From a virus (Duplodnaviria > Caudoviricetes): a stretch of DNA of 54,164 nucleotides. A program made the translations under genes and the position numbers. This document shows, one piece after another, positions 1 through 54,164 of the stretch (position 1 is the stretch's first letter; each line of letters begins with the position of its first letter). The notes beneath the pieces are model-generated. The model had not been told where the DNA came from. It saw only the letters and a program-made list of their open reading frames with translations, and made no database searches. The DNA lies in the IMG/VR virus record IMGVR_UViG_3300022208_000005, positions 1-54,164 of that record; one strand, 5' to 3'.

Positions 1-1287
1 GCTGTATGTTGAACTCCAATTTATAATCTTCTTATACCTCTTGAGCTTCTTTCTCACAGCTTTAAGCTTTAGATGTATATGAGCTTCTGCTTCTGTGAAT
101 TTCTCTCTTCTTATAGGTACCCCATGTTCCTCACTTTCCTCATATACCCTAGAGGCTGGCATATAGATATGATTGAAGATCTTTTCTATTGGGGGGTCTT
201 TTCTCAATTGTTTCTTTAGTACACCATACAGCTTAAAGGTATAATAGATATCATACCCCAAGTAAGTTAGATAATTATCATAGTCTTTCTTAGTCTTTAT
301 ATTTCCTTTCTTAAGGTTTTTATCTATATCCCAATCAATAGCATTACACAGCTTAACAGCATTCTCCTTAAGGCCATTTGGTGTATTCTCATCCAAGGCG
401 TGTGATGCTAACATAGTATCGAAAGTTATTATGGGTTTAACACCAAAATGGTACCCTAAGAATAGGTCATCAAACTTACCATTCTGAGCTATTCTCTCAT
501 GAGTTAATTCTTCAAACTTTTCCACCCATAGCCTTACAAGTTTTTTCTGAGCTATCCTCTTATTACGCAAGGGGCTGTACTTCACATTTAGAGGTATGAT
601 ATATTGTACTCTATCATTACCAAACCCCAATAGGTTCACATAATCTTTAAATCTATTTAAACCAGTTGTCTCTATGTCATAGGTTAATTTTTTGTACCCC
701 TTTAATTTTAAATATCTGAAAGCTGAGTTAAGTTGTTTTAGATTAGATATAATCTTTAAGTTTAACTCTGGTAATTCTCTAGTGCTACCATTAACCATGT
801 CAGCAAAGTTATTAAAGGCCTGTATTACATAAGGGGTTTTACCAACATCTCTGTATATAATCCCAGGAGCATATGAGGCCATATATTTAAAGTTTGGCCC
901 TTCCTTAGCAATACCATTAGTTCCTGTGATAGAATCATTAGAGAAGGCTTTTAAGGCCTGTGCTCCCAATAGTAATATAAACCTGGGTTTAACCTCATTG
1001 ATTTCTTTATCTAGATGTAACTTACATTTTTTAATCTCACTAATCTTTAATTTAGTGCCATAGGGGGTTCTACATTTTATCAGATTAGTATAGTATACTT
1101 TTTCTGGGTCAATGCCAACATCCATAAGATGTGATCTTAGAGCTTTATCCATAGTAGCTTCATGGTTGTTCTCATCAATATCTTTAGCATTGGAGTTTAC
1201 TATCATGATATCTGCTCGCTTATTTCCACTCCCCGGAATACAAGGAGGAGCAGAGTGGACATATAGTCCACACTCCTTGCAAGTCAT
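1..1287 (-). CDS. polA: DNA polymerase family A, N-terminal part (UDG-like Fe-S domain plus 3'-5' exonuclease); continues across the contig join into 54164-52880
   Basis: Not in the ORF track. Hand translation from ATG 1287 gives MTCKECGLY...YYTNLIKCRTP...EIKKC...KPRFILLLGA (family-4 UDG-like fold), then ExoI YDIETTGL, ExoII AQNGKFDD and ExoIII YLGYDIYYT. It is in frame with ORF 52880..54088 through the terminal overlap, giving about 812 aa. Confidence 0.92.
   Translation of the reverse strand, partial: MTCKECGLYVHSAPPCIPGSGNKRADIMIVNSNAKDIDENNHEATMDKALRSHLMDVGIDPEKVYYTNLIKCRTPYGTKLKISEIKKCKLHLDKEINEVKPRFILLLGAQALKAFSNDSITGTNGIAKEGPNFKYMASYAPGIIYRDVGKTPYVIQAFNNFADMVNGSTRELPELNLKIISNLKQLNSAFRYLKLKGYKKLTYDIETTGLNRFKDYVNLLGFGNDRVQYIIPLNVKYSPLRNKRIAQKKLVRLWVEKFEELTHERIAQNGKFDDLFLGYHFGVKPIITFDTMLASHALDENTPNGLKENAVKLCNAIDWDIDKNLKKGNIKTKKDYDNYLTYLGYDIYYTFKLYGVLKKQLRKDPPIEKIFNHIYMPASRVYEESEEHGVPIRREKFTEAEAHIHLKLKAVRKKLKRYKKIINWSSTYS
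8..133. repeat. Terminal overlap, copy 1 (126 bp, identical to 54039-54164)
   Basis: Direct sequence match from gttgaactccaat to catgttcctca at both ends; typical of a circular assembly overlap. Confidence 0.95.
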
Positions 1288-1289
1288 AA

Positions 1290-2036
1290 CTAAAATACTC
1301 CTTGTATATCTTTGTTGTACACATGTAGTGAGAAGATAGTATGTGTGAACATTCCAGGTGTGTAACCAGTTTTATCAGCTACATAATTAAGCAGCTTCAT
1401 GGCAAGATATACATCATTAGGGAAATGGGTAGCATAATCACAGCTTCTCATGATGTAGTGTATATTAATCTTACCTTCCCTTACTTGGAAATTATAACCC
1501 AGTGAGCAGGGAACTCTTGACATGCCACCCATGTTCTGTGGGTCTTTGTTTGGGTCCCATAGAGACAACCAAGTCTGCCTAGAGTCTGGGTCATTCCTAA
1601 GTCTTTTGATTATGCCCCATAGTTGATCTTTCCAGTTAATGCGTTCATTATATGAGTAAGCAAACTGTCCTTCATGTAAGAACTCACTCCATATGCTATC
1701 TCTAAGTAGATAAGCTCTTCCAGGATTAATATACTCCATGTTTTTATGGTATTCTTCTATAGGCCCATTCCTTATATCTAGGCTGTCTGGGATAAATGAT
1801 TGATCTACCCTTTCTTCAAATTCAGCATCGGCCCAAGGTTGTGTTACTCTTGGTACCTTCTTAGGGTCACAATCAAGAATACGATAAGAGTAATCCTGTA
1901 GCTCTTTAGTGAAGTAATCTTCATTACCCTCTATGTTTTTGTCCTGCATTGACTTAGGCTTTACTAGTATACCCATCTCACTAATATCTCTTTTGATTTC
2001 CTCAAACGCCTCTGTTGCTGATACATAAAATCTCAT
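1290..2036 (-). CDS. Thymidylate-synthase-fold enzyme, probably a dCMP hydroxymethylase or methylase
   Basis: Motifs DPDSRQ, RVPCSL (catalytic Cys), MRSCDYATHFPND and SLHVY. Asp occupies the ThyA Asn177 position, as in T4 gp42 (RSNDVVFGFRND). The likely start is ATG 2036, which overlaps the upstream stop as TAATG. Confidence 0.8.
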   Translation of the reverse strand: MRFYVSATEAFEEIKRDISEMGILVKPKSMQDKNIEGNEDYFTKELQDYSYRILDCDPKKVPRVTQPWADAEFEERVDQSFIPDSLDIRNGPIEEYHKNMEYINPGRAYLLRDSIWSEFLHEGQFAYSYNERINWKDQLWGIIKRLRNDPDSRQTWLSLWDPNKDPQNMGGMSRVPCSLGYNFQVREGKINIHYIMRSCDYATHFPNDVYLAMKLLNYVADKTGYTPGMFTHTIFSLHVYNKDIQGVF

Positions 2037-2251
2037 TAGTGTTGTCCTCCCTGGAATAGTGAAGTATGGCACCCACAGATGGGGCACCTAGTTTTGAATT
2101 TAATAATATAATAACACAAGTATGCTACTGATACAACTCCAGCCGTTAATAGTCCTAAAGTGAATATCAACCAATTAAAGCTAGTTTTCCTAGGAGATAC
2201 CCACTGCTTACATTGTTTACAATATCTAGACATAACATCATCCTTTCTCAA
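2036..2251 (-). CDS. Small Zn-ribbon protein with a central hydrophobic segment (LITAF-like)
   Basis: CKQC, then a hydrophobic stretch, then CPICGC; overlaps both neighbouring genes. Confidence 0.6.
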   Translation of the reverse strand: MRKDDVMSRYCKQCKQWVSPRKTSFNWLIFTLGLLTAGVVSVAYLCYYIIKFKTRCPICGCHTSLFQGGQH

Positions 2252-2987
2252 AGTGATCTTTGATTGACAAAGACTCTATTGGTATAGCCGGGAACTTCTC
2301 AATCTTAAAATATAAATGTTGCATTCTCTGTAGTGCTTTGTAGCTGTGAATTTGATCTACTGTTTTGAAGAACCTTTCATAATTACTCATTAGCGACTTG
2401 TGCCAGGGGTGTTTACTTTTGCTTATCCCCTTTCTTGGTATACCAAAGAAGTCGAAGTAACCATTTATAAACATACCCGAACAGTAGATCTGATTAAAGT
2501 AGAATGCTATATCATCAATCTGACAACACTCAGGTAGTTCATTTATGAAGTGGTGTACCAGAACTAAGTCTGCTGCAAACCTTCTTTGAGATTCAGAGGT
2601 CCTCCAGTTCATATTGATCTTAGTCCAGGGGCCCTTCCTTTTCTTTCTGGTGATTACTACATTTAGTAAACAAGAGCCATTGTTTACCTGTTTCTGTTTA
2701 AAGTAGTAAGTCAATGACATACCCGAAGCTTTTGATAATTTAGCCTTGAATTGTTCTAATTGTTCCCAGTCAATGTAGGTTCTAAGTAGATGTGGCCATT
2801 TACCAGACTTATACCCAAACATGCCTAGATCAAGTGAGCATTTATGAGACTCACAAGTTAATAATACATTATCATTGTATCCCTGGATAGATTGGGTATA
2901 GGTTATATACTCATCAGGGTTCTCAAGAAACCCTTGGTTTAATTTCAGGAACAACTCATCTAGGTCTTTGTAGTGCTTAACCAACAT
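2238..2987 (-). CDS. Second, divergent thymidylate-synthase-fold protein
   Basis: NNGSCLLNVVI (Cys in the PC-like position) followed by WRTSESQRRFAAD, which has the same spacing as RSCD...ND in the paralog; similar length (249 aa). Confidence 0.55.
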   Translation of the reverse strand: MLVKHYKDLDELFLKLNQGFLENPDEYITYTQSIQGYNDNVLLTCESHKCSLDLGMFGYKSGKWPHLLRTYIDWEQLEQFKAKLSKASGMSLTYYFKQKQVNNGSCLLNVVITRKKRKGPWTKINMNWRTSESQRRFAADLVLVHHFINELPECCQIDDIAFYFNQIYCSGMFINGYFDFFGIPRKGISKSKHPWHKSLMSNYERFFKTVDQIHSYKALQRMQHLYFKIEKFPAIPIESLSIKDHFEKG

Positions 2988-3637
2988 TAGTACTTGCTGC
3001 CTTGTCTAAAAGCATTAACCTGTGATTTCTTGAGATACACATTGGCTATATCTTCTGCTGGCATATTTGCAGCCTTAAAGAAAGTAAAATACTTAATCCA
3101 TACCTTAGACAGTTGTTCTTCGAAAGCCTTTACATCAGTTAGCATCTGACTTTGTTTCCATGGCTTATTCTTAAGCGTATTACACATCATTCCAAGTTCT
3201 TGGATGAACTCCTGAACATACATCCCATTCCAATAACCCTTTATGCCATTTGTTTGGGATAATAACAGATCCAGATAGTCATAGCCTTCTCTGGGATATA
3301 TGTCTAATATATCATCATGGTCCCAACCACATAGTAGAGTAAGTTCTGTTAAGAAGTGTAGGCCGTCTACAAGCTCTTCTTTGAAGTGTTCACTAATACC
3401 AGTATGTTCTAAAGCGTCAATTGCCTCCCCTAGCTCTTCTGTGATTCTCCAAGCAAAGTCCTTAATCCTAGCTTGTGACTTTTTACAGTTCAGATTAAGG
3501 GGGTTATCCTCCGTTTGACAAAGACCCGATAATGACTCAATGGGGTGGTACTTAACCATGAGTTCCCTCTGTCTGTCAAATATAGCTTGTAGTCTGTCAC
3601 CCGTTATCTCCTCATCTAATGCGTGTGTAATGTTCAT
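2987..3637 (-). CDS. All-alpha NTP pyrophosphatase (dCTPase or dimeric dUTPase-like)
   Basis: EELGEAIDA...EELVDGLHF, KPWKQ and YLKKSQVNAFRQGSKY resemble T4 gp56 and dimeric dUTPase motifs. Confidence 0.8.
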   Translation of the reverse strand: MNITHALDEEITGDRLQAIFDRQRELMVKYHPIESLSGLCQTEDNPLNLNCKKSQARIKDFAWRITEELGEAIDALEHTGISEHFKEELVDGLHFLTELTLLCGWDHDDILDIYPREGYDYLDLLLSQTNGIKGYWNGMYVQEFIQELGMMCNTLKNKPWKQSQMLTDVKAFEEQLSKVWIKYFTFFKAANMPAEDIANVYLKKSQVNAFRQGSKY

Positions 3638-4152
3638 CTTTTGCCCTCCTCATAAGTTTTGATAATGTCTTCCACTAAGGTTTCTAAACTGCTGTTTTTA
3701 TAATTATATATCACTGTGTTCCAACCTTTATAGGTTAGTTCTTGATATACATTATCACATTGCTTTAATAGCTGTACTTTCTTATCTATAACTCCGGGGT
3801 ATTGTTCTCTATCGCCAAAGTTAAAAATAAATTGGTCTGGTATTCTAGTATAGATAATGTAGGGGTTTTGATTTTTCACAGACTCTACTACAAGATCATT
3901 GAAGCTAAATTTCGGTGTATCTCTTAATACATTACCATAGACCATTTCTTCTATGAAAGCAAAACGATCATATAGCAGTATGGTATCTTTAGTATTCTTA
4001 TTAAGTTGACTAAGCATCCACTGCTCTTGTTCAAATTTGCTTAGTGGTCCGGGTGATTTACCAATTACACTCACATCAGGTAATAATGAGGCTAACTCAG
4101 CAACAAGTGTAGTCTTACCAGTGTTATCCATTCCGGTACAGATAATAATCAT
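3634..4152 (-). CDS. dNMP kinase (thymidylate-kinase-like P-loop protein)
   Basis: N-terminal GMDNTGKTT P-loop; DRF...EMVYG motif. Confidence 0.8.
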   Translation of the reverse strand: MIIICTGMDNTGKTTLVAELASLLPDVSVIGKSPGPLSKFEQEQWMLSQLNKNTKDTILLYDRFAFIEEMVYGNVLRDTPKFSFNDLVVESVKNQNPYIIYTRIPDQFIFNFGDREQYPGVIDKKVQLLKQCDNVYQELTYKGWNTVIYNYKNSSLETLVEDIIKTYEEGKR

Positions 4153-4577
4153 TTCTTCTTACCTCCTTTTGATGTAGTACTTCCTTCAACACTTCTTCCC
4201 CATGTATGATTATATTTCTTAAGCCAATAATCTTGATCTGATACCCCACATACTGGGCATTGCTTATGGGTTAATTTTTGGCTTTTGAATATTTGCCAAC
4301 TTTGACAGTATGGACACCATACTTGTCTAGCACTAGACCTGTGTTTTAACTCATCAATGGGACTGGCCTTGTAAACATCTACGAAATGCAATTCATAATG
4401 TATGCCCTCAAATTCTTTCATAAGCCTCTTTGAAAATATCTCCATCTGTTTCTTAGTATCAAACCTTTGAAACCCAGAATGGTATACAATTCCCCCTTTC
4501 CGATTCTTTATAATAAATACAACTAAGTTTCTTCTAAGGTAAAGTTTGTTGTTACTAAAGTCTAATGTGAATACCAT
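4149..4577 (-). CDS. Hypothetical Zn-ribbon protein
   Basis: WCPYC...QCPVCG; GGAGG ribosome site upstream. Confidence 0.6.
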   Translation of the reverse strand: MVFTLDFSNNKLYLRRNLVVFIIKNRKGGIVYHSGFQRFDTKKQMEIFSKRLMKEFEGIHYELHFVDVYKASPIDELKHRSSARQVWCPYCQSWQIFKSQKLTHKQCPVCGVSDQDYWLKKYNHTWGRSVEGSTTSKGGKKK

Positions 4578-4598
4578 AGGATAGACCTCCTTATCATC

Positions 4599-4626
4599 AT
4601 TATACCATATATAAGCTATGTGTCAA
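4599..4626 (-). promoter_or_regulatory. sigmaA-type promoter ahead of the nucleotide-modification/polymerase operon
   Basis: Minus strand TTGACA-16 nt-TATAAT with extended -10 TG. Confidence 0.6.
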
Positions 4627-6526
4627 TCCTATAGCGTCCATTTTTAAATAGTCTCATGTCATCTATTAGACTTGGGTTAAGTCCATGATCTTTAATCTCT
4701 TGTCTGGTTAAACCATTGGGATGTTGTTTCAGTAAAGTTATTATCTGTTCTCTGGCTTTAGTGGGGTCTTCACCAACCTTATTAACCTCAACATGGTAGT
4801 AGGGGTCACCAAATACACCCATCTTTATATCTAACTGAACCTGTGGAAATGTGCCAGCAAGTCTAAATTCTCTATCCATGATAACTTTAGATGGCATTGA
4901 GGATTGGGTATCTATGTCTTCTTCAGTTAGAGGTGTCTCTAAGTCTTCATCAGATCTCTTAAGATACCATGCTGATTCTATCCAGCCATGTAGTATACCA
5001 GAACCCATCATCTTTTGACCACCCCTAGTCTGTGTAGCATTCCCTCCTTTATTGTAGTGATGTATAACCATTACTCCAGTCTTATAATTATTTTTTAGGT
5101 GGAGCAACCACTGCAGTGCGGGATTAAGCTCAGAAGCTTTGTTTAGATCACCATCAAACATAAGGTAGAGGGGGTCAAATACCACAAGTACGGGTTTTAC
5201 TCTCTGCACTAATTCCTCTAATTGTTTCTTGTGGTCAATACTACTCATACTAAAACCCTGTTGGTTTATAAAATGTATAGGTAGGTTGGGTGGAAATTTT
5301 ATTTTCATTATATCTCTTTTCCTACTTACATTGCCAACTAAACCTCTATGAGATATGATCTTCTCTGTTCTGTCCTTCATTATCCAATCAGCATTCTCAT
5401 TCTGGACTACTATCACAGGTCCTGGTTCTAGTACTCTATACTTACCTAAGAATGGTGCTCCTGATGCAACTGACACCACTAAGTCTTGTGTAAAAGTAGA
5501 CTTGAATACCTTAGGTTGACCAGCTACAATACCATGGGACCTTCTACCCCAAAACCCTTCAATGAGCCAACCCGGAAATGACTTCATATTGGACATAACA
5601 TCATCATAAGAGTCTATGGTAAAGTCTCCTAAACTTTCGTCATTAGAGATATCATTATCAAGCTTACCCCCTATGATCTTATCTAACTCTTTCCTTAATC
5701 TTTTGTCTTCATCATTTCTACCTTTATATTTATTAAAGGCCGAGTTCTTAACCAGGAATATTACTTCATCCGGTGACATTCCTATATCTAATAACTTGTT
5801 CTCTATATACCAAATGGTAGAACTTCTATCAAGTGATGATATATCTCTTAAAGCTAGTAAGTCCATAACTTTCTTTGGCATACTATAATTTGCATATAGC
5901 TGCCTCTCTGTGAGACTAATGGTACTAAAGTCCATTTCAACCTTTTGGCTTGGTTTTGATTCCTTTACAGATACAAGCTTTCTTAGGTTCTTAGGTTTAT
6001 ATAGCTTCTTACCTACTTCAGGCATTTCTACTAAGGGTTTATTCTTATACTTATGGTTTGTAGTTCCCGGTATTCTATAGACATGGGTATAGTCGAAACA
6101 ATCATCACAACCTATAAATTCTGCCAGGCCCTTGTTCAGTGGTGTATATTCTGATTCTTCAATATATCTGTCTAGTTCCCATAATCCTTGATACTTACCT
6201 GGTGATGATTCCCAGAGTATCGTAGGTTTTGGGTCTAATGTTCCTACATCCTCAAACTCATCTATATCTTGTGCTAAATATTTTGATGGTAATGAGTTAT
6301 CTATTCTCCTATTAGGTTTACTGTAAGGCATTGGAGACCAATAGAGATCATATAGATTGTGAGGGTAATCCTTAAAAAACCTTTTGAGTCCTTTATCCAA
6401 ATTATTATATGGGATTGATACATCCTTCCACTTAATATTGGGGCCCTTAACGGACAAGATTATGTAGTCACCCTTTTCACATTGCTTGTGGTATATATCT
6501 TGTAGGAACTTTATACTTGGCTTCAT
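4616..6526 (-). CDS. Primase-helicase (RepB-type primase plus RecA-like AAA_25 helicase)
   Basis: QDIDE, WESSPGKYQGLW and RIPGTTNHKY (primase); GQPKVFKS Walker A, VFDP Walker B, VIHHYNK. Confidence 0.85.
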   Translation of the reverse strand: MKPSIKFLQDIYHKQCEKGDYIILSVKGPNIKWKDVSIPYNNLDKGLKRFFKDYPHNLYDLYWSPMPYSKPNRRIDNSLPSKYLAQDIDEFEDVGTLDPKPTILWESSPGKYQGLWELDRYIEESEYTPLNKGLAEFIGCDDCFDYTHVYRIPGTTNHKYKNKPLVEMPEVGKKLYKPKNLRKLVSVKESKPSQKVEMDFSTISLTERQLYANYSMPKKVMDLLALRDISSLDRSSTIWYIENKLLDIGMSPDEVIFLVKNSAFNKYKGRNDEDKRLRKELDKIIGGKLDNDISNDESLGDFTIDSYDDVMSNMKSFPGWLIEGFWGRRSHGIVAGQPKVFKSTFTQDLVVSVASGAPFLGKYRVLEPGPVIVVQNENADWIMKDRTEKIISHRGLVGNVSRKRDIMKIKFPPNLPIHFINQQGFSMSSIDHKKQLEELVQRVKPVLVVFDPLYLMFDGDLNKASELNPALQWLLHLKNNYKTGVMVIHHYNKGGNATQTRGGQKMMGSGILHGWIESAWYLKRSDEDLETPLTEEDIDTQSSMPSKVIMDREFRLAGTFPQVQLDIKMGVFGDPYYHVEVNKVGEDPTKAREQIITLLKQHPNGLTRQEIKDHGLNPSLIDDMRLFKNGRYRIDT

Positions 6527-6541
6527 AGTCCTACCCCTTTA

Positions 6542-6712
6542 TTAGTCTTCTACAAATTTGAACTCATAACCTTTACAGCTTTTCCTTTTACCCTGTAAAA
6601 CTTTTCTTATGTTCTGAGCACTTATACCAAGTACTTTAGAACAGTTGCTGATAGATTGGTATACAGTACCATCATTCAGGCATACTATAGCTTTAGGTTT
6701 ATTAAAGCTCAC
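6542..6712 (-). CDS. 56-aa NUMOD1-like helix-turn-helix protein
   Basis: Below the ORF-track cutoff; GTG start with GGAGG; MSFNKPKAIVCLNDGTVYQSISNCSKVLGISAQNIRKVLQGKRKSCKGYEFKFVED. Confidence 0.6.
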   Translation of the reverse strand: MSFNKPKAIVCLNDGTVYQSISNCSKVLGISAQNIRKVLQGKRKSCKGYEFKFVED

Positions 6713-6783
6713 GACTGAGTCCTCCTAACTTAAAAGAAAGGAGTGTAACGATTACACCCCATCCTGGATTTTATCATTTATGA

Positions 6784-7362
6784 TTATTCTTCGTCATCAG
6801 CCTCAAGCAGGGCGATCAACTTTTCTTTGGAATCTTTCTTTCCAGCCTTCAATCCTCTTTCCTTACATTCAGCTGCAAGTTCTTTCTTTGTCATGTCTTC
6901 ATAATCTGAAGCATCATCTTCTTCTTCCTCGTCATCAGAATCACCATCTGATTCTTCTAACAATTCAATGATCTCTTCTTTGCTCATCTTCTTAAGCTCT
7001 TTCTTTGTCACATCAGTTTCTTCTGCAGCGATGTTGATGAGTTCTTTCTTAGACATTGAATCATAATCTGAACCTTCTTCTTCGTCATCGTCTTCAGACT
7101 CTTCAGCATCTGGACCATCTTCATCCATTGCCTCTAGTTCAGCATCATAAGCAGACTTCACAGCATCAAGAGCAGTCTTAGCAGCTTCGATAGCTTCCTC
7201 TACTGATACATCACCATCTTCTGGGGTTCTTTCAATCAATTCATCGATAGCTTTCTCAGCTTTCTTAGAAGCTTTGTCATCCCCACCGAATCCTTCTTTT
7301 GCAAAACCCAGTAACTCTACATTTGTTGCTTCCTCTAACCACTTTGCTTTAGCTTTTGCCAT
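6784..7362 (-). CDS. Highly acidic protein with two SAP/Rho-N-like helical modules
   Basis: YDSMSKKELINIA...MSKEEIIELL and YEDMTKKELAAECKERGL...KEKLIALLE, separated by D/E tracts; GAGGAGG upstream of ATG 7362. Confidence 0.75.
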   Translation of the reverse strand: MAKAKAKWLEEATNVELLGFAKEGFGGDDKASKKAEKAIDELIERTPEDGDVSVEEAIEAAKTALDAVKSAYDAELEAMDEDGPDAEESEDDDEEEGSDYDSMSKKELINIAAEETDVTKKELKKMSKEEIIELLEESDGDSDDEEEEDDASDYEDMTKKELAAECKERGLKAGKKDSKEKLIALLEADDEE

Positions 7363-7425
7363 TTTCATTTCCTCCTCAGGATAGTTTAATATGTTTTTAA
7401 TCAACATTGTTTTGAGTACATTCTT

Positions 7426-7454
7426 ATATTACCATACCTAATGTCTAATGTCAA
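7426..7454 (-). promoter_or_regulatory. sigmaA-type promoter
   Basis: TTGACA-17 nt-TAATAT with extended -10 TG. Confidence 0.6.
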
Positions 7455-7459
7455 CGAAC

Positions 7460-8080
7460 TTAGTATAAAAATTCAGAATAATCTGTATATTGATTATATA
7501 TAAAGGCCAGACCCTTCCTAGAGCTAATATAATCACACATGTGGACAAACATTTCATCTGGTTTCTGAGGGATTGGGAACTCTATCTCTTCACCTTTCTT
7601 ATTATTCCATTGCCCCATGTGACAAGCTATTAGTCTACATACTTCTTTATATATAGTAGGGTACTCTTTCTTGAGTGGCTTTAGGATAGCTGCAGCCTTT
7701 ATAGGGTGGTCCCAATCTGGCTTACCAATATCATGTAATATTAAAGCAGCTTGTACCAGATCATGATCTAACTCTTTAACTACTATCTTCATTTCTGAAG
7801 CTATGTAGCATGCAGCCTTAACATGTCTTACTAAGCCACCAACTCCAGAACTAGGTTGTGGATGAAATTTACCTGTAGCCGAAGCAGGTAATATAAAGAA
7901 GGACTCATCTACACATTCCATCAATGCCCTTTTAACAAATAAAGCCACATCACCTTCTTTTATTCTTTGTATCTCTGGTTCCAGACTTTTTAACCCCATT
8001 CTTCTTACTAGGCTTAGTTCCTGTACTACCTCTGCCTTCTTTGACTTCTTTGACTTCCTTACTCTTTTTACCAACCTCAT
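7460..8080 (-). CDS. HD-domain phosphohydrolase or nuclease
   Basis: KFHP...GGLVRH, LILHDIGK, IACHMG, VHMCDY. Confidence 0.8.
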   Translation of the reverse strand: MRLVKRVRKSKKSKKAEVVQELSLVRRMGLKSLEPEIQRIKEGDVALFVKRALMECVDESFFILPASATGKFHPQPSSGVGGLVRHVKAACYIASEMKIVVKELDHDLVQAALILHDIGKPDWDHPIKAAAILKPLKKEYPTIYKEVCRLIACHMGQWNNKKGEEIEFPIPQKPDEMFVHMCDYISSRKGLAFIYNQYTDYSEFLY

Positions 8081-8284: not shown

Positions 8285-8662
8285 TTATTTGAAGTGTAAC
8301 TTAACTACACTCCTTTTCCTCCTCTCATAAGATATTAGTTGCATGGCTTTATTATTTATCCAAGGTAGTGTGAGTGGTAGATCAAAGCCGGTAGAACCAT
8401 CAAACTCTAAAAGGTAATTTGACTCTGGCATACTCATAGCTATCTTTGGGTACTTCCTTACAAGTTTTATAAGCTCTTTAGACCAATCATCCCATTGGTG
8501 GTCATTTATCAGAGATGTGTGGTGTCTATAGTATATGCAACTATGGACCAGTATTTGTAACCACCTTCTCTTCATCAACAGCCTTATATCAGTCTCACCC
8601 TTACCAAGAGTATTAAGCTTAATGGTCTTGCTGGGTTTTAGTTTCTTCTTTTTCTTGGTCAT
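8285..8662 (-). CDS. Stand-alone domain resembling NAD-dependent DNA ligase subdomain Ia
   Basis: HSCIYY...LINDHQWDDWSKELIKLVRKYP resembles LigA H..YY....ISDAEYD.L..EL..LE..HP. Confidence 0.6.
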   Translation of the reverse strand: MTKKKKKLKPSKTIKLNTLGKGETDIRLLMKRRWLQILVHSCIYYRHHTSLINDHQWDDWSKELIKLVRKYPKIAMSMPESNYLLEFDGSTGFDLPLTLPWINNKAMQLISYERRKRSVVKLHFK

Positions 8663-11188: not shown

Positions 11189-11734
11189 TTATAATCCTAG
11201 GTTAGTACAAATCTCGGTAAGGCCATTCTCAAAGCCATCACCCAAGGCAGCAAACTTCCATTCTCCATTATGTCTGTACATCTCACCGATGATAACACCA
11301 GTCTCAATACTGTAATCCTCAGATAGATCATATCTAAGCATCTCCTCATTGGTTACCTTGTTCACAACTCGGATGAAGGCATTTTGTACTTGTCCGAAGT
11401 TCTGTCTTCTGGACACAGCATCATAAATATTCACAATAAATTTAAGCTTGTGAACATCCTCTTGTATCTCAGGTAGATTGATGAAGATTTGTTCGTCATC
11501 CCCATCTCCTTCACCTGTGAGGTTATCACCAGAGTGTTTTACCCCAGGGGCAGATTGTTTACCAAAATATACAAGAGTAAGGCCCTTGTCATTTTCATCC
11601 ACTAGAGCAACCGATGCGTCTAGATCAATGGATACACCATTTCCAACATCCCAACCCAAGCCTATTGTTACCTCTGTCATACCTGGTGCTGCTTTTGTTA
11701 AATCTACCTTTTGTCCTTTTACTAAGTTTACCAT
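11189..11734 (-). CDS. terD: TerD-family stress/tellurium-resistance protein
   Basis: LVKGQKVDL, GLGWD, DLDAS, HSGDNLTGEGDGDDEQI, NFGQVQNAFIR, GEMYRHNGEWKF. Confidence 0.92.
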   Translation of the reverse strand: MVNLVKGQKVDLTKAAPGMTEVTIGLGWDVGNGVSIDLDASVALVDENDKGLTLVYFGKQSAPGVKHSGDNLTGEGDGDDEQIFINLPEIQEDVHKLKFIVNIYDAVSRRQNFGQVQNAFIRVVNKVTNEEMLRYDLSEDYSIETGVIIGEMYRHNGEWKFAALGDGFENGLTEICTNLGL

Positions 11735-13014: not shown

Positions 13015-13275
13015 TCATTCTTCAAGTTCTACCTGCATGACTCCAATTTCTTCATGTAGAGCACTAAGATCATCACTCATCACATCCTCTAAGTTACATA
13101 ACTTATCCTCTATGATCTCATTCTGCATGGTCATCTTCTCAGCTGTAATCATAATGAACTCCTGGTTCTTCTGCATCAATCTGTAAGCACACATAGCGAA
13201 TATGCTAAAGGCTATTGACATTATTACCATAGATATCATTAAACCTCTTATCTGTCTTTGTTCTCTACTCATCAT
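13015..13275 (-). CDS. Transmembrane plus coiled-coil protein; probable N-terminal half of the SleB-like hydrolase
   Basis: Hydrophobic helix; ends at TGA 13017-13015 in the same frame as the hydrolase. Confidence 0.6.
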   Translation of the reverse strand: MMSREQRQIRGLMISMVIMSIAFSIFAMCAYRLMQKNQEFIMITAEKMTMQNEIIEDKLCNLEDVMSDDLSALHEEIGVMQVELEE

Positions 13276-13522
13276 AACCTCCTGTTATGTCCTTCATTAT
13301 ATGCTGTAAATCACCATAAGATTCATCAAAGAGAGCTTGTATTAATTCCTCATGGTATTCTGACCATTCTTCTCCCATATGTTCTTCTACCAATTCGTCA
13401 AGCCCTGGTCCAGTACATTTTCTGATACCCTCTTGATGTACCCATTCCTCTGTGAATACCTCACCTTCAATTTCTAGTGTTCTTACATCAGTTGTCTCTG
13501 TGATCTCCCAATTAAACTTCAT
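13265..13522 (-). CDS. Hypothetical acidic protein
   Basis: ORF in a tightly packed operon. Confidence 0.55.
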   Translation of the reverse strand: MKFNWEITETTDVRTLEIEGEVFTEEWVHQEGIRKCTGPGLDELVEEHMGEEWSEYHEELIQALFDESYGDLQHIMKDITGGYDE

Positions 13523-13525
13523 CTA

Positions 13526-13762
13526 CTACTCCTCCTTCAATCTTTCATTTAGTAGGGTTATAAACTTAGCTTGTCTCTTAGGACCAAAACCAAACTCATC
13601 ATGTAGTACCTTCATAGCCTCTACTAAGATTGTATCAGCATAGCTCCCTGCAAACACATGCAGGAACTCATTAAGCTTATTAGCACTCATCTTCTTGATC
13701 TCTTTATGTCTGGCCTTAAGTACATCTCTTTCCTTACTCATCACAATCCTCCTCATCCTCAT
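13526..13762 (-). CDS. Hypothetical phage protein
   Basis: LHDEFGFGPKR motif, familiar from small Firmicutes phage proteins. Confidence 0.55.
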   Translation of the reverse strand: MRMRRIVMSKERDVLKARHKEIKKMSANKLNEFLHVFAGSYADTILVEAMKVLHDEFGFGPKRQAKFITLLNERLKEE

Positions 13763-14084
13763 TCTCTTCTTCCCAACTTATATATTGAATAAATCCTAAC
13801 CCCAGGTCTATATTTTGGAATCCAACTACATATCCCAGATTCTCTAGGTAATGACTTAAGCTAGAACCAACCTTTTTAGTCATCCTAGGTAGATGTCTAC
13901 CATTTATACTATAATCACCTGTATTAGCTGCATCTCTAATGGTGTTAAATACAATAGCAAGTAGTTGTTCATTCTCAAGCTCAAACTTTCTATTCATAGT
14001 ATCCTTAGATATCTTAGATATTTCTCTAGCCTCATCAACTGTAATAGATAACTTAATAATGCTCTTTTCTAAGTCTGCCATCAT
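13734..14084 (-). CDS. Hypothetical protein
   Basis: ORF with AGGAG ribosome site. Confidence 0.5.
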   Translation of the reverse strand: MMADLEKSIIKLSITVDEAREISKISKDTMNRKFELENEQLLAIVFNTIRDAANTGDYSINGRHLPRMTKKVGSSLSHYLENLGYVVGFQNIDLGLGFIQYISWEEENEDEEDCDE

Positions 14085-14093
14085 AATTCTCCT

Positions 14094-14267
14094 TTACTTG
14101 AATATACTTCCATCTACATAGTCTACACAGTTTCTTAGCTTTATTACCAGCTGTTGTACTTCCTCAAACTCATCATAAGTTAGTGGGTTATTGATTACAT
14201 GTTCGTCTTCTTCAAAATCATTCTCACACATCTTAATAAATGTTTCTAGTCTACCAATGATCTTCAT
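14094..14267 (-). CDS. 57-aa hypothetical protein
   Basis: Hand-translated MKIIGRLETFIKMCENDFEED...; overlaps the upstream stop as ATGA. Confidence 0.45.
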   Translation of the reverse strand: MKIIGRLETFIKMCENDFEEDEHVINNPLTYDEFEEVQQLVIKLRNCVDYVDGSIFK

Positions 14268-14680
14268 AAGCTTACTACCTCCTCAATTAACTTCCATTCC
14301 TCATCCGATACTATACCACAATCATACTTCTCTTGTAGATTGTAATAACACTGCCTTAGGTATCTATCATTATGCCATAGATCATAAATGTATACTAACA
14401 TAGACATATGCCATTTTGGGAAGTAAGGACTATACCAATTCATTACAGAGTTATACTTGATCTCACTTGGCTGGTATCCTCTTCTTATCATTTCCTCATA
14501 TACCAATTGGGTATAGGCCTTAAAGTGTAACAATGAGTAGTCTAGTACTTTATTCACTAATCTGTGGTTGGGTGTGCCATTCTTATCAATTGCTCCTTTG
14601 ATTGCCAGTAATTCTCTCCATTGTGCAACTAGTTGTTTCTGTGGTAGTACTGGTATTAAGTCCTTGTGCCATAGTCTCAT
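14264..14680 (-). CDS. Pyrimidine-dimer DNA glycosylase / endonuclease V family
   Basis: MRLWHKDLIPVLPQKQLVAQWREL...VYEEMIRRGY. Confidence 0.8.
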   Translation of the reverse strand: MRLWHKDLIPVLPQKQLVAQWRELLAIKGAIDKNGTPNHRLVNKVLDYSLLHFKAYTQLVYEEMIRRGYQPSEIKYNSVMNWYSPYFPKWHMSMLVYIYDLWHNDRYLRQCYYNLQEKYDCGIVSDEEWKLIEEVVSL

Positions 14681-20819: not shown

Positions 20820-21236
20820 ATGGAGAGACCAAGTAGAGATCAAGTGAATATGGAGATAGCCTTCACAATGTCAGGTAGATCTACATGTATGAGAAAGCAA
20901 GTAGGTGTAGTGATTGTCAAAGACAATAGGATTATAGCAACAGGGTATAATGGGGTAGCATCAGGAAGACCACACTGTACAGAATGCGAGGGTCCTGGAT
21001 GCAGCAATTCAATGCACGCAGAGGCTGGTGTAATATCATTCTGTGCTAAGCATGGTATTGCTCTTAAAGATTCTACCATGTATGTAACCATGAACCCATG
21101 CGAAGCATGTGCTAATCTTATTATTAACTCAGGAATCAAGGAAGTGGTATTCCTAGAACAATATAGATACTCAATAGGAATACAATTATTAGAATCAAGT
21201 GGTATAAAAGTTAGGAGGCCAGAACAATGCAAATAG
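20820..21236 (+). CDS. dCMP deaminase
   Basis: RSTC.RKQVG.VIV...IIATGYNG, HAE, PCEAC. Confidence 0.9.
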   Translation: MERPSRDQVNMEIAFTMSGRSTCMRKQVGVVIVKDNRIIATGYNGVASGRPHCTECEGPGCSNSMHAEAGVISFCAKHGIALKDSTMYVTMNPCEACANLIINSGIKEVVFLEQYRYSIGIQLLESSGIKVRRPEQCK

Positions 21237-47204: not shown

Positions 47205-47230
47205 AAAGGGCCTACTTGAGTAGGTCCTTT
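47205..47230. terminator. Hairpin at the convergence of the two transcription arms (likely bidirectional terminator)
   Basis: aaagggcctact-tg-agtaggtccttt. Confidence 0.65.
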
Positions 47231-47778
47231 ATCTTTTGGATTAGTTTGGTATCAGTCTTATCCCAAGCCCATTGTTTAGAGGGTTTGTCAATTTTGGCAT
47301 TTCTTAGTATTCTTCTGGCCTTCTTACCTGACATGTTACCCATCAATTCCTTAAGTGTGATTAAGTTATCAGTAGTAGCAGGTTCATTTGAGATGTGTTT
47401 GTCCTTGGCTGGCTTTGATTTATTAGTAGTTTTAACTGGGAGCATTTCATCTACAGCCTTAAGTTTTCCAAACTCAATTTCTTTATTTAAGTAATCATAT
47501 TCTTCACCAAAGCTAATGCCCTCCTCAATCATTTCTTTCATTGAAGCCTTAAGTTGTTTTAGGGTCATTCCTTTATAGTGCTCTATGAATCTTTCTTGAT
47601 TTGTCCTTTTTGGAGTTAGTGTTTCTTCAACATCTGGTGTGAGGGATGGTTGAAGTTTCTCAATTTCAGTTATTAGGTCAGATTTTTTAAGGTTCCACCA
47701 ATTAGATACCTTCATTTCCTTCGCAATTGATTTGAGTTCAGAAGCCTTCATTTCAGAATAATTAGTCATGTTTGACAT
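47212..47778 (-). CDS. DNA-binding protein: N-terminal Rho-N-like module plus C-terminal HTH-like domain
   Basis: YSEMKASELKSIAKEMKVSNWWNLKKSDLI; LITLKEL...KKARRILR. Confidence 0.65.
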   Translation of the reverse strand: MSNMTNYSEMKASELKSIAKEMKVSNWWNLKKSDLITEIEKLQPSLTPDVEETLTPKRTNQERFIEHYKGMTLKQLKASMKEMIEEGISFGEEYDYLNKEIEFGKLKAVDEMLPVKTTNKSKPAKDKHISNEPATTDNLITLKELMGNMSGKKARRILRNAKIDKPSKQWAWDKTDTKLIQKIKDLLK

Positions 47779-50244: not shown

Positions 50245-51030
50245 CTATTCCTCATCATCTTCTTCTAACAGTTCAATTAATGCTGGTTTCTTATCCTTCT
50301 TCTTGTTGAATTTAATACCCCGTTCTTTACACTCAGCTTGTAGATCTTTTAGATCCCAGTCTTCATAGTCATCGTCATCATCTGAGTCATCATCGCCATC
50401 ATCAGAATCCTCTAATAAGTCTAATTCTTCAAGAGCTTCTGTGATATCTTCTTCATCTTCACCCATAATCTTTTTAATCAGGGCAGACTCCTTATCCTTA
50501 GACTTATATTTAATGTCTAATTCATCACAGACCTCCTTTAGGTCGTCTATGTCTAGTCCTTTTAGGACCTCCTCAACATCTACATCATCATCATCAGAGT
50601 CATCATCTTCTGAGTCATCTTCAGGGTTGATAAATTCTACAATGCGGGATTTTTTCTTCCCCTCATAGGTCTCATGTGCTACTTCCACATTACATTCTAA
50701 ACCTATGAGGTCATTGATATCCAACTCAAATTCATCTGTTGGTATATCAAACCCTAGGGCTTCAAGTAAGGCCTTAATACTGAATAATGCCTGTGGTTGA
50801 AGTGAACATGTGTGGAAGAGTTTACTACCCTTATTCTTTCCTTCAGCTATCTCAAAAGTAAAATCGATTTTAGGTTTATCATTTTTAGATTCACCAGCTT
50901 CAGCCTCTGTTAATGTTACTTGATAAACACCCTCTGGTATAACCTTAAATCCTGAACTTACTTCTGATAAATTACCTACCTTTACGGTGTTGCCCTTCTT
51001 ACTACCTCTTCTTGATGATTTCTTAGCCAT
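50245..51030 (-). CDS. Single-stranded DNA-binding protein (DUF669-like) with acidic tail and two SAP/Rho-N-like modules
   Basis: IPEGVY.V....AE...SK, F.I..G...G, DLIG....V.V..E.Y.GK. Confidence 0.8.
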   Translation of the reverse strand: MAKKSSRRGSKKGNTVKVGNLSEVSSGFKVIPEGVYQVTLTEAEAGESKNDKPKIDFTFEIAEGKNKGSKLFHTCSLQPQALFSIKALLEALGFDIPTDEFELDINDLIGLECNVEVAHETYEGKKKSRIVEFINPEDDSEDDDSDDDDVDVEEVLKGLDIDDLKEVCDELDIKYKSKDKESALIKKIMGEDEEDITEALEELDLLEDSDDGDDDSDDDDDYEDWDLKDLQAECKERGIKFNKKKDKKPALIELLEEDDEE

Positions 51031-52870: not shown

Positions 52871-52899
52871 ATTATACCATTAGTATTTCCCCAAGTCAA
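52871..52899 (-). promoter_or_regulatory. sigmaA-type promoter of the recombination operon
   Basis: TTGACT-17 nt-TATAAT with extended -10 TG. Confidence 0.6.
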
Positions 52900-54164
52900 T
52901 AGGCTTAATGCCAGCCTGTTTAAAGTAATCTTCCCAACCTATTGTATCTCCCCAGGCATCACCAATCTCTATATCTACTACAATTGGAATATCAGTTTTA
53001 AAATTGAATACCTCAACCAGAGCTTTTGGGTTTTCCATTATAGCTTTTACCTTAGGCACAAATTCTGATAGGTAATCTTCTTGGACCAACCATAATACCG
53101 CATCATGTACTGTGCCAATACTTACACATTTATCCCTATTAAGTTTCAATTTCTTGTGGTAGTATTTAGCGTACCCCATAGACTCTATCAGTCCTAGTAA
53201 AGTTAAATCACTACCAAAGCCTTGTACTGGGGAGTTTATGCTTTGTCTTTCTGCCTCAGCTCTCTTTCCCTGATCTGATGAGTTTATATCTGGTAATCTC
53301 CTTAATCTACCAATTAATGATCTAACCTGACCCTGTGCTTTTACTATCCTCCTTTGCCTTATATGCCAATCAGCAAGATCACCATAGGTATCAAAGAATC
53401 TAGCTCTGTATTGTTTAGCCTCAGCCTCTGTGAGTTTAATTCCATAGGTGTCCCTAGCATAATCTTTAAACTTCTTCCAACCCATACCATATAGGAACCC
53501 AAAATTAACAGCTTTAGCTTTCTTTCTTTTCTCCTTTTTAACTGCTGGGTCTTTCTCATCATTAATATCTTCTCCGGATACAATATTGTAAGTGGCATCA
53601 TGTATATCCCCACCCTCTACATATATCCTCCTCATTTCTCTTTCCCCACTCATCATGGTAGCTATCCTTAACTCAGCTTGTGAATAGTCAGCCTCCACAA
53701 ATTTCCAACCTGGCCTTACATTGCCTATTAGGGTCCTTATAGCTTTATCTCTAGGTACCTGTTGAAGGTTTGGGTCAGTACATGAAGTTCTACCTGTTAC
53801 AGTGCCATTAAGCTTGAATTTTGGGTATATCTTACCATCGAACATTCTATCTATCCAACCTTCAATAAAATGAGTAAGCTGGATTTTAATTCCACGATAA
53901 TCTAAGATTAGTTGTGCTATGGGGTGTAAATCTCTTAGTCTCATTAATGCTGATTCTGCTGTAGATGGGTTACCAGTATCAGTCTCCTCCATGACCGGTA
54001 ACTTTAACTCCTCAAATAATAATTTTCCAACCTGTTGGGTTGAACTCCAATTTATAATCTTCTTATACCTCTTGAGCTTCTTTCTCACAGCTTTAAGCTT
54101 TAGATGTATATGAGCTTCTGCTTCTGTGAATTTCTCTCTTCTTATAGGTACCCCATGTTCCTCA
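52880..54164 (-). CDS. polA: DNA polymerase family A, polymerase domain (continuation of 1287 to 1)
   Basis: TVTGRTS..PNLQQ, motif A DYSQAELR, motif B RKKAKAVNFGFLYG, INSPVQG, motif C VHDA. Confidence 0.95.
   Translation of the reverse strand, partial: EEHGVPIRREKFTEAEAHIHLKLKAVRKKLKRYKKIINWSSTQQVGKLLFEELKLPVMEETDTGNPSTAESALMRLRDLHPIAQLILDYRGIKIQLTHFIEGWIDRMFDGKIYPKFKLNGTVTGRTSCTDPNLQQVPRDKAIRTLIGNVRPGWKFVEADYSQAELRIATMMSGEREMRRIYVEGGDIHDATYNIVSGEDINDEKDPAVKKEKRKKAKAVNFGFLYGMGWKKFKDYARDTYGIKLTEAEAKQYRARFFDTYGDLADWHIRQRRIVKAQGQVRSLIGRLRRLPDINSSDQGKRAEAERQSINSPVQGFGSDLTLLGLIESMGYAKYYHKKLKLNRDKCVSIGTVHDAVLWLVQEDYLSEFVPKVKAIMENPKALVEVFNFKTDIPIVVDIEIGDAWGDTIGWEDYFKQAGIKPIDLGKY
54039..54164. repeat. 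Terminal overlap, copy 2 (identical to 8-133)
   Basis: Direct sequence match. Confidence 0.95.

Follow-up and report, generated by a model that had tools for sequence, protein, structure and literature searches.

The stretch of DNA considered here, the whole of IMG/VR virus record IMGVR_UViG_3300022208_000005 (Duplodnaviria; Caudoviricetes; 54,164 nucleotides, referred to below as the window), carries at the downstream end of its leftward replication module a cassette of predicted nucleotide-metabolism genes that includes a thymidylate synthase (TS) homologue, protein A, and a second, divergent protein of predicted TS fold, protein B, and that probably serves to make a modified cytosine ahead of replication. 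The genome is one contig of the same length as the window and identical to it, with a G+C content of about 36-37%, and positions 1-133 recur at 54032-54164 as a repeat of 133 nt, 127 of them exact, with the mismatches within the first 7 bases. This end repeat identifies the window as a circular assembly of a whole phage genome, so that the 54-kb genome is complete and the classification of the record as linear is an artefact. On the minus strand the genes follow one another as primase-helicase, Zn-ribbon protein, kinase, pyrophosphatase, protein B, a small open reading frame (ORF), protein A and PolA, the junctions being, in that order, +38, -4, -4, -1, -14, -1 and +2 nt (Table 1). When the ends are joined, PolA is one frame of 812 aa that comprises a uracil-DNA glycosylase (UDG)-like domain, a 3'-5' exonuclease and the polymerase. 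The initial annotation had described a promoter in front of these genes as well as their order, strand and overlaps, and the coordinates bear out all of this, the promoter being the sole 12/12 consensus match among 35 promoter-like sites in positions 1-7500, a region in which shuffling gives an expectation of 27.5 +/- 5.6 such sites. Megablast of positions 1-6526 against phage records gave no match at the nucleotide level.

Table 1. Features of the cassette and associated genes in the window (positions are those of the whole stretch)
Feature	Position	Strand	Description
Primase-helicase	4616-6526	-	Upstream of the cassette; 38-nt gap to the Zn-ribbon gene
Sigma-70-type promoter	4626-4599	-	TTGACA-16-TATAAT with upstream TG; followed by AAGGAGG and the ATG of the Zn-ribbon gene
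Zn-ribbon protein	4149-4577	-	142 aa, CxxC...CxxC; phrog_28450 (unknown function) 2.9e-23; accessory to the module
Kinase	3634-4152	-	172 aa, P-loop, Tmk-like; phrog_761 'thymidylate kinase' 8.6e-15
Pyrophosphatase	2987-3637	-	216 aa, all-alpha NTP pyrophosphatase; PF08761 dUTPase_2 4.9e-10; phrog_12184 7.5e-39
Protein B	2238-2987	-	249 aa; divergent TS-fold protein, unannotated family
Small ORF	2036-2251	-	71 aa from TTG or 65 aa from ATG 2233; CxxC, one hydrophobic helix, CxxC
Protein A	1290-2036	-	248 aa; thymidylate synthase homologue; PF00303 2.1e-20; phrog_160
PolA, N-terminal 429 aa	1-1287	-	UDG-like PF03167 3.6e-12; 3'-5' exonuclease PF01612 6.3e-14
PolA, C-terminal polymerase part	52880-54164	-	Last 133 nt repeat the first 133 nt
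dCMP-deaminase-family protein	20820-21236	+	138 aa; PF00383 1.6e-25 and 4.8e-24
HD-domain phosphohydrolase	7460-8080	-	206 aa; PF01966 5.6e-11

Protein A matches PF00303 at 73.4 bits against a cut-off of 24.3, over profile positions 78-217 of 266 only. Its start had been placed at GTG 2087; GGGAGG lies 8 nt upstream of the ATG at 2036, the gene call in the protein collection is 248 aa and all homologues begin MR.Y, so that ATG 2036 is the most likely start. The motifs on which the initial annotation relied, RSCDYATHFPND and SLHVY, are present in the translation, the E. coli and T4 counterparts had been quoted correctly, and alignment places the Asp of A, as had been proposed, opposite Asn177 of E. 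coli ThyA and the Asp of T4 gp42; where canonical ThyA requires Asn177, A has Asp208. In E. coli numbering, used from here on for the active-site residues of A, Arg174 of the protein is position 143, Cys177 is 146, Ser178 is 147, Asp200 is 169, His204 is 173, Asp208 is 177 and Tyr240 is 209. A retains Trp80, Tyr94, Arg126, Cys146, Arg166, Ser167, Asp169, His207 and Tyr209; Tyr94, Cys146, Arg166, Ser167, Asp169, His207 and Tyr209 are found in A and in the other six A-family rows of the residue table, and all of these except Tyr94 have invariant equivalents in the 29 aligned A-family members, taken from 120 homologues listed. Arg143, Ser147, His173 and Asp177 are invariant in the same 29. The exchange N177D is an experimentally established switch to dCMP specificity, according to PMC13326640, and in the MetaGPA study Asp177 is the top residue separating modified-cytosine from unmodified contigs, positions 177 and 147 being those that best separate modified from unmodified metavirome contigs (PMC8670742). 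With Asp177 and Ser147, A is as in the modified contigs at both.

The A family was aligned with five reference enzymes, namely E. coli ThyA (product dTMP), PaMx74 TS (5-methylcytosine, 5mC), T4 gp42 (5-hydroxymethylcytosine, 5hmC), RB69 gp48 (5-hydroxycytosine, 5hoC) and SPO1 gp29 (5-hydroxymethyluracil, 5hmU). None of the five shows the Arg143 and His173 of A at those positions, both of which are listed within 6 Å of C5 in ThyA in PMC13326640. The same source associates a hydrophobic residue at position 143 with methyl products and Asp or Glu with hydroxymethyl products, and gives D169N as the mark of the flavin- and O2-dependent 5-hydroxy-dCMP synthases. T4 gp42 and SPO1 gp29 both have an acidic residue, Asp, at 143, whereas A has Arg in 29 of 29 members; at positions 173 and 127 A has His and Gln where gp42 has Gly and Arg, and Gln127 is shared with SPO1 gp29 (R127Q). 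Since Asp169 is retained, A appears not to be of the 5hoC type. Only 8 residues follow the Tyr209 column in A, compared with 55 in ThyA, 61 in PaMx74, 28 in T4 and 12 in RB69. Arg143, His173 and Asp177 recur in the TS proteins of the mycobacteriophages FF47 and Muddy, where residue 147 is Thr. As judged from the alignment, Arg143, His173 and the missing C-terminal tail of A fit none of the five characterised classes.

All NCBIfam TS equivalog models fall far below their cut-offs (best 73.9 bits against 174.55), and among them A comes closest to TIGR03283, which describes the short TS of methanogen type. The best match of the A-family profile in the PDB is AfhB of HY126 (9iqc, 9iqu; 1.1e-17, against 8.9e-15 for the best TS), and for an AlphaFold2 (AF2) model of A (pLDDT 81.9) the best superpositions are those on MilA and AfhB, TS following at a short distance. 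The comparison by profile and phylogeny with ThyA, T4 gp42 and the SPO1 enzyme that the initial annotation had called for yields the PF00303 match and, in a tree of 14 TS-family rows with long branches and weak deep nodes, a group of the A family with FF47_44 (94/92) that stands apart from the five references; at this sampling A would be nested in no characterised class. A variable insertion at residues 82-103 of the protein, modelled at pLDDT below 50 and of widely differing length among members, lies after the conserved N-terminal part and ahead of the NPG motif.

Protein B had been described as a TS-fold paralogue, and the fold is upheld by predicted structure and profile-profile alignment; BLASTP, Pfam, NCBIfam and PDB sequence searches, with the single sequence and with a profile, gave no TS match, and the sole PHROG match is phrog_34294, of unknown function. 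An AF2 model built on 28 of 38 close homologues, with shorter and near-duplicate rows left out, has a pLDDT of 92.2 and a pTM of 0.90. Foldseek of this model against the PDB gives 16 matches at E <= 0.001, the best being AfhB (9iqu; E 1e-6, TM 0.51/0.58), followed by MilA, T4 dCMP hydroxymethylase and thymidylate synthases, and the structural neighbours of B in the Atlas include PF00303 clusters. A HMMER scan of 1.84 billion representatives with B yielded 333 clusters with E <= 0.001, of which 108 reach <= 1e-10. Among 57 diverse full-length members, taken at intervals down the ranking of the 150 representatives listed, Lys63 is invariant, Tyr59, Leu67, Tyr71, Cys106, Arg129 and Asp140 are conserved to 90% or more, and 0 of 57 match PF00303. 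Alignment of this broad B profile with the TS alignment by hhalign reaches a probability of 89.3% (E 2.1e-6, 153 columns) and pairs Cys106 of B with Cys146, Arg129 with Arg166, Thr130 with Ser167, Glu132 with Asp169, Asp140 with Asn177, Asn103 with Leu143 and Trp64 with Trp80. The TS-fold homology of B is visible in sequence only when this broad profile is used in profile-profile alignment; directly, A and B give a best BLASTP E of 15, and with the narrow alignments of the two proteins hhalign reaches 0.4%. The TS dimer donates a DSRR arginine pair to the active site of the partner subunit, and no counterpart of this pair was found in B within the aligned stretch, where the alignment is of low confidence. 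Prediction of an A-B complex returned a score of 0.00 and no call, which speaks neither for nor against binding. B can be assigned to the TS superfamily only by predicted fold and profile-profile alignment, and on that footing it has the appearance of a working Michael-addition enzyme that acts on a cytosine nucleotide, rather than of a decayed copy. In one related IMG/VR phage (L011) a second tandem copy of B (6744-7499, 251 aa) stands between B and A, giving three TS-fold genes in a row, and in CPAS-15 (MN417334.1) the B homologue at 13253-13999 is named 'colanic acid biosynthesis glycosyltransferase', a name to which fold and sequence give no support.

The kinase, which has no Pfam or NCBIfam match above cut-off, is 33% identical over 90 aa (E 2e-5) to RB69 gp45, the Tmk-like kinase of the RB69 5-hydroxycytosine cluster, and would phosphorylate the modified dNMP. 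The pyrophosphatase had been called dCTPase/dUTPase-like, and this is borne out by its membership of the Pfam family of T4 gp56: gp56 also matches PF08761 (25.4 bits against a cut-off of 22.9), so that the label gp56-like holds at the level of the family, the direct similarity between the two proteins being weak (E 0.004). Searches of PDB sequences with pyrophosphatase and kinase gave nothing useful. The initial annotation had missed a dCMP-deaminase-family gene that lies about 19 kb from A on the opposite strand and is therefore not in cis. Its product is 45% identical (E 8e-37) to FF47_44A, which adjoins the A homologue of FF47, and also matches the T4 deaminase Cd (1vq2, 5.4e-21) and PaMx74 Cd (31% identity); a deaminase gene is present in 5/5 related genomes tested, and by sequence it is to be regarded as a relocated orthologue of the in-cis deaminase of FF47. 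In a six-frame search of the genome PF00303 matches A alone, and the genome thus has no dUMP-type TS. The statement that no glycosyltransferase is recognisable holds for the two Pfam families searched in six frames, PF00534 (GT_1) and PF00535 (GT_2), and genome searches for dihydrofolate reductase (DHFR), a C5 DNA methyltransferase and a trimeric dUTPase found none.

The cassette is not confined to the window, and its presence in cultured phages had escaped the initial annotation. By tblastn, A and B occur together in ten Clostridium perfringens phage records (CPD4, CP3, CPAS-15, Clo-PEP-1, P21, A2, C2, D1, E1 and H1), with identities to the CPD4-group proteins of 64% for A and 60% for B, and distant B members match three uncultured phage records in which the next-best A matches are also found, A and B lying within 3 kb. 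The order kinase-pyrophosphatase-B-A is kept in 13/13 related loci (12 IMG/VR loci and CPD4), and PolA follows A directly in 2 of these 13, as it does in the window. In the mycobacteriophages FF47 and Muddy the order is helicase, Tmk-like kinase, pyrophosphatase, a 297-aa hypothetical protein, TS, a 180-aa gene and PolA. The pyrophosphatase FF47_46 belongs to PF08761, and its Muddy counterpart, gp48, is a dUTPase by annotation only. The 180-aa gene of FF47 is a PF00383 deaminase in cis, by which this phage differs from the window, and Muddy gp45 is syntenic and of deaminase size. The 297-aa proteins, of which Muddy gp47 is one, align with the B profile at hhalign probabilities of 95.2% (FF47) and 95.3% (Muddy), FF47 TS aligns with A at an hhalign E of 5e-23, and Muddy gp46 is 35% identical to A by BLASTP (E 6e-24). 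In the C. perfringens phages and in FF47 and Muddy alike, kinase, pyrophosphatase, B and A stand next to PolA, exonuclease and Sak4-like genes, and the cultured-phage annotations read thymidylate synthase, dUTPase, thymidylate kinase or hypothetical only. No report on DNA chemistry or modification in these phages (CPD4, Muddy, the C. perfringens phages) was found in the literature, the available parts of PMC13203459 and PMC6884629 holding nothing relevant to it; the supplements of bioRxiv 10.1101/2024.12.05.627091, PMC13326640 and PMC8670742 may list A-family enzymes among those tested.

With moderate confidence, we read these genes as a module by which a C5-modified cytosine would be made before replication and incorporated in DNA. 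The reading starts from gene content, order and conservation, active-site residues and folds, and proceeds to predicted substrates, a predicted product and a putative replacement in virion DNA. The cassette would be transcribed with the replication genes from its promoter. The gp56-family pyrophosphatase would take dCTP, and probably dUTP too, back to the monophosphate; the catalytic cysteine of A (Cys177 of the protein) would then attack C6 of dCMP, and a one-carbon unit would pass from methylene-tetrahydrofolate to C5. Since A lacks a C-terminal lid and places two polar side chains, Arg and His, next to C5, the intermediate would most likely be resolved without hydride transfer, to 5-hydroxymethyl-dCMP or a related C5-CH2-X adduct. 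The Tmk-like kinase, together with a host NDP kinase, would raise this product to the triphosphate, the UDG-PolA would incorporate it, and the dCMP-family deaminase would feed the thymidylate branch. B may act as a second TS-fold enzyme for a cytosine nucleotide, either carrying out a further step on the product of A or serving as its partner. On this reading A is most likely a folate-type, cytosine-specific enzyme with a non-reductive product, hydroxymethyl or another CH2-X. The short tail of 8 residues (against 55 in ThyA and 61 in PaMx74) and the lack of a DHFR speak against a methyl product, and the retention of Asp169 and of Trp80, which is Val in RB69 gp48, speaks against a hydroxyl product. 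As a rough first guess, a 5hmC-like base ranks first, a new adduct next and 5mC after that.

In outline such a scheme would resemble those of T4 and Xp12, in which the canonical triphosphate is depleted, the monophosphate modified by a TS homologue, and the product re-phosphorylated and polymerised. The gene set also corresponds to the metavirome neighbourhood that PMC8670742 and bioRxiv 10.1101/2024.12.05.627091 tie to modified cytosine. With the T4 5hmC pathway the window shares a TS homologue that carries Asp177, has a reduced C-terminus and resembles gp42 in the 'GMS-x' stretch ahead of the catalytic Cys, a pyrophosphatase of the gp56 Pfam family, a nucleotide kinase and a dCMP-family deaminase. 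It differs from T4 in having no GT_1 or GT_2 glycosyltransferase match and no Td, in its Tmk-like kinase, and in its additional TS-fold protein B, family-A polymerase and 54-kb genome. By the residues that define them, the predicted module lies outside the T4, Xp12/PaMx74, RB69 and SPO1 enzyme classes. The cytosine-modification pathway of the initial annotation is supported in part, as regards a dCMP-type Asp177 TS accompanied by a kinase and a gp56-family pyrophosphatase; the destruction of dCTP, the full replacement of C and the nature of the adduct are predictions.

Several points weigh against a cytosine replacement of this kind, or against its hydroxymethyl form. With Arg and not Asp or Glu at position 143, the call of 5hmC is weak, and the rule itself is not safe, since in our alignment the PaMx74 5mC enzyme departs from it, with Asn at 143 where a hydrophobic residue would be expected. 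Nor would a short C-terminus alone rule out methyl transfer, given that the best NCBIfam model is of the short methanogen type; neither the tail argument nor the rule for position 143 is safe, and the product of the predicted enzyme is not predictable from current residue rules. Lys at position 21, a further likeness to T4 gp42, depends on the alignment, the assignments of A at the N-terminal positions 21 and 58 varying with the one used. To these may be added the weak deep nodes of the tree, the predicted nature of the chemistry of all family members, and the inclusion of true dUTPases in PF08761, which bears on the putative hydrolysis of dCTP. Finally, GAATTC is absent from the window (0 seen, 10.7 expected), and GATC (0.66) and TGCA (0.64) are both low, an avoidance that would be needless if every C were strongly protected. 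CpG is extremely depleted over the whole window (observed/expected 0.21). Low-GC Firmicutes and their phages are CpG-poor, and as the avoidance signals are also mixed, composition is judged uninformative on cytosine modification; host mimicry and restriction pressure are both possible sources of the depletion of CpG and of these sites.

A more specific form of the cytosine reading, which we hold only tentatively, is that A and B jointly make an undescribed cytosine derivative. A would place a C5-methylene or hydroxymethyl group on dCMP, and A or B would re-activate or intercept it and install a nucleophile other than water or hydride at the level of the mononucleotide; the basis for this lies in B as a second putative Michael-addition enzyme of TS fold and in Arg143 and His173 of A beside C5. 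Less likely than this is a pathway of the Xp12/PaMx74 type, in which A would methylate dCMP, the kinase route would lead to 5-methyl-dCTP and full replacement of C by 5mC, and the deaminase would convert some of the methylated nucleotides to the thymidine series. In favour are the absence of a dUMP-type TS from the window and the presence there of a deaminase that shares 31% identity with PaMx74 Cd. The phage also combines PolA and an all-alpha pyrophosphatase with an Asp177 TS and a dCMP-family deaminase, and these genes, the pyrophosphatase being of PRA-PH type, form the neighbourhood reported for metavirome contigs with modified cytosine, in which 5/7 such TS homologues tested made 5mdCMP (bioRxiv 10.1101/2024.12.05.627091). 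PaMx74 itself, however, has a full-length TS and encodes a DHFR (frd) to recycle dihydrofolate, whereas A is cut short and the search for a DHFR in the window gave none, and of the features of the Xp12/PaMx74 type (a full ThyA-like C-terminus, Asp177 and a deaminase in cis) the window has Asp177 only. PaMx74 moreover groups with ThyA and A does not, with weak support, Arg143 and His173 put polar groups at C5, and protein B is not mentioned in the accessible parts of the MetaGPA and PaMx74 descriptions.

That the genes serve nucleotide supply only, with A, deaminase, kinase and pyrophosphatase boosting or re-routing dTTP and dCTP (for example from dCMP through 5-methyl-dCMP to dTMP) and the virion DNA canonical, seems to us improbable. 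The cassette does lie among replication genes, no downstream GT_1 or GT_2 transferase or DNA methylase was found, restriction-site avoidance persists as described above, and the relatives carry the plain annotations already cited. Against this, the TS equivalog models score far below their cut-offs, supply alone would leave the second conserved cytosine-type TS-fold enzyme, B, without a role, and contigs experimentally enriched for modified cytosine show a strong excess of Asp177 enzymes (PMC8670742). There is a still smaller chance that thymine and not cytosine is replaced, A making 5-hydroxymethyl-dCMP, the deaminase converting it to 5-hydroxymethyl-dUMP and the pyrophosphatase removing dTTP and dUTP, to give 5hmU DNA as in SPO1. 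A and SPO1 gp29 have R127Q in common, PolA has the N-terminal UDG-like architecture of SPO1 gp31 (PF03167), and seven deaminases from metaviromes, each encoded in cis with an Asp177 TS, made 5hmdU from a 5hmdC pool in vivo (bioRxiv 10.1101/2024.12.05.627091). The authors of that preprint nevertheless read those deaminases as acting on methylated nucleotides to give T, the route is indirect compared with a dUMP hydroxymethylase, and B too has the cytosine-type Asp.

A flavin-dependent 5-hydroxy-dCMP synthase, like RB69 gp48, DLP3 gp80 or HY126 AfhB and omitted from the chemistries listed in the initial annotation, is very improbable for A or B: such enzymes do share with A the Asp177, a very short C-terminus and an adjacent Tmk-like kinase, and one of them, AfhB, is both the top PDB sequence hit of the A-family profile and the closest fold to B, but the diagnostic D169N is absent (Asp200 in A, Glu132 at the aligned column of B), neither A (Arg) nor B (Asn) has Glu at position 143, A keeps Trp80, no sugar-activation or GT_1/GT_2 glycosyltransferase gene was found to use the hydroxyl, and the reaction needs O2 (PMC13326640), whereas the cultured relatives infect the anaerobe C. 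perfringens and the sole DNA sequencing run listed with this DNA, with no RNA run beside it, is a sediment metagenome, which may be the source of the window.

A handful of phage lineages are known to replace a pyrimidine before replication, and in every one of them the chemistry is set by the TS homologue. The signature of A, with Arg143, Ser147, His173 and Asp177 and no C-terminal lid, lies outside the five product classes aligned, and this TS homologue is always accompanied by B, a TS-fold family of 333 representative clusters that carries no annotation. The carriers are already known and in culture, among them candidate C. perfringens biocontrol phages and the therapy phage Muddy, so that the product is directly testable. 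A non-canonical base in such carriers would bear on restriction and CRISPR evasion, on sequencing and quality control of therapeutic stocks and on DNA sensing; should A and B together form the adduct tentatively proposed above, C. perfringens phages and Muddy, a mycobacteriophage used in therapy, would carry an undescribed base in their DNA.

The small ORF had been counted as a cassette member encoding a small membrane Zn protein; the ORF is present in the window, has no Pfam or PHROG match and has a homologue in 0/13 related loci. In other relatives the interval between B and A is 11-54 nt or holds an unrelated ORF or a second copy of B, and this CxxC-transmembrane-CxxC ORF is possibly not a functional part. 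The Zn-ribbon gene is found in 2/13 related loci. The UDG-like domain of PolA (window 780-1287, with L021 42241-43440 and L001 9344-11785) is also found in SPO1 gp31 (1.5e-22) and in CPD4 PolA and was not detected by Pfam in the FF47 and PaMx74 polymerases. After ADIMIV, PolA of the window reads NSNAKD, at a stretch where a family-4 UDG motif is usually to be expected. The HD-domain protein, with homologues upstream of the primase gene in CPD4 (52%) and in the related locus L008 (39%), may be a further nucleotide hydrolase or pool enzyme, its link to the module being uncertain. Elsewhere the early region encodes a stand-alone DNA-ligase-like N-terminal NAD-binding domain (8285-8662; PF22745, 8.2e-24), a TerD-domain protein (11189-11734; PF02342, 4.1e-67) and a T4 endonuclease V-like pyrimidine-dimer glycosylase (14264-14680; PF03013, 5.4e-21). 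Three proteins of the window (6784-7407, 47212-47778 and 50245-51030), one of them resembling a single-stranded DNA-binding protein, have short C- or N-terminal modules matching the same PHROGs, phrog_2250 and phrog_3281, the module of 6784-7407 also matching the SAP domain below the Pfam cut-off, and the common module looks like a reused DNA-binding or tethering motif.

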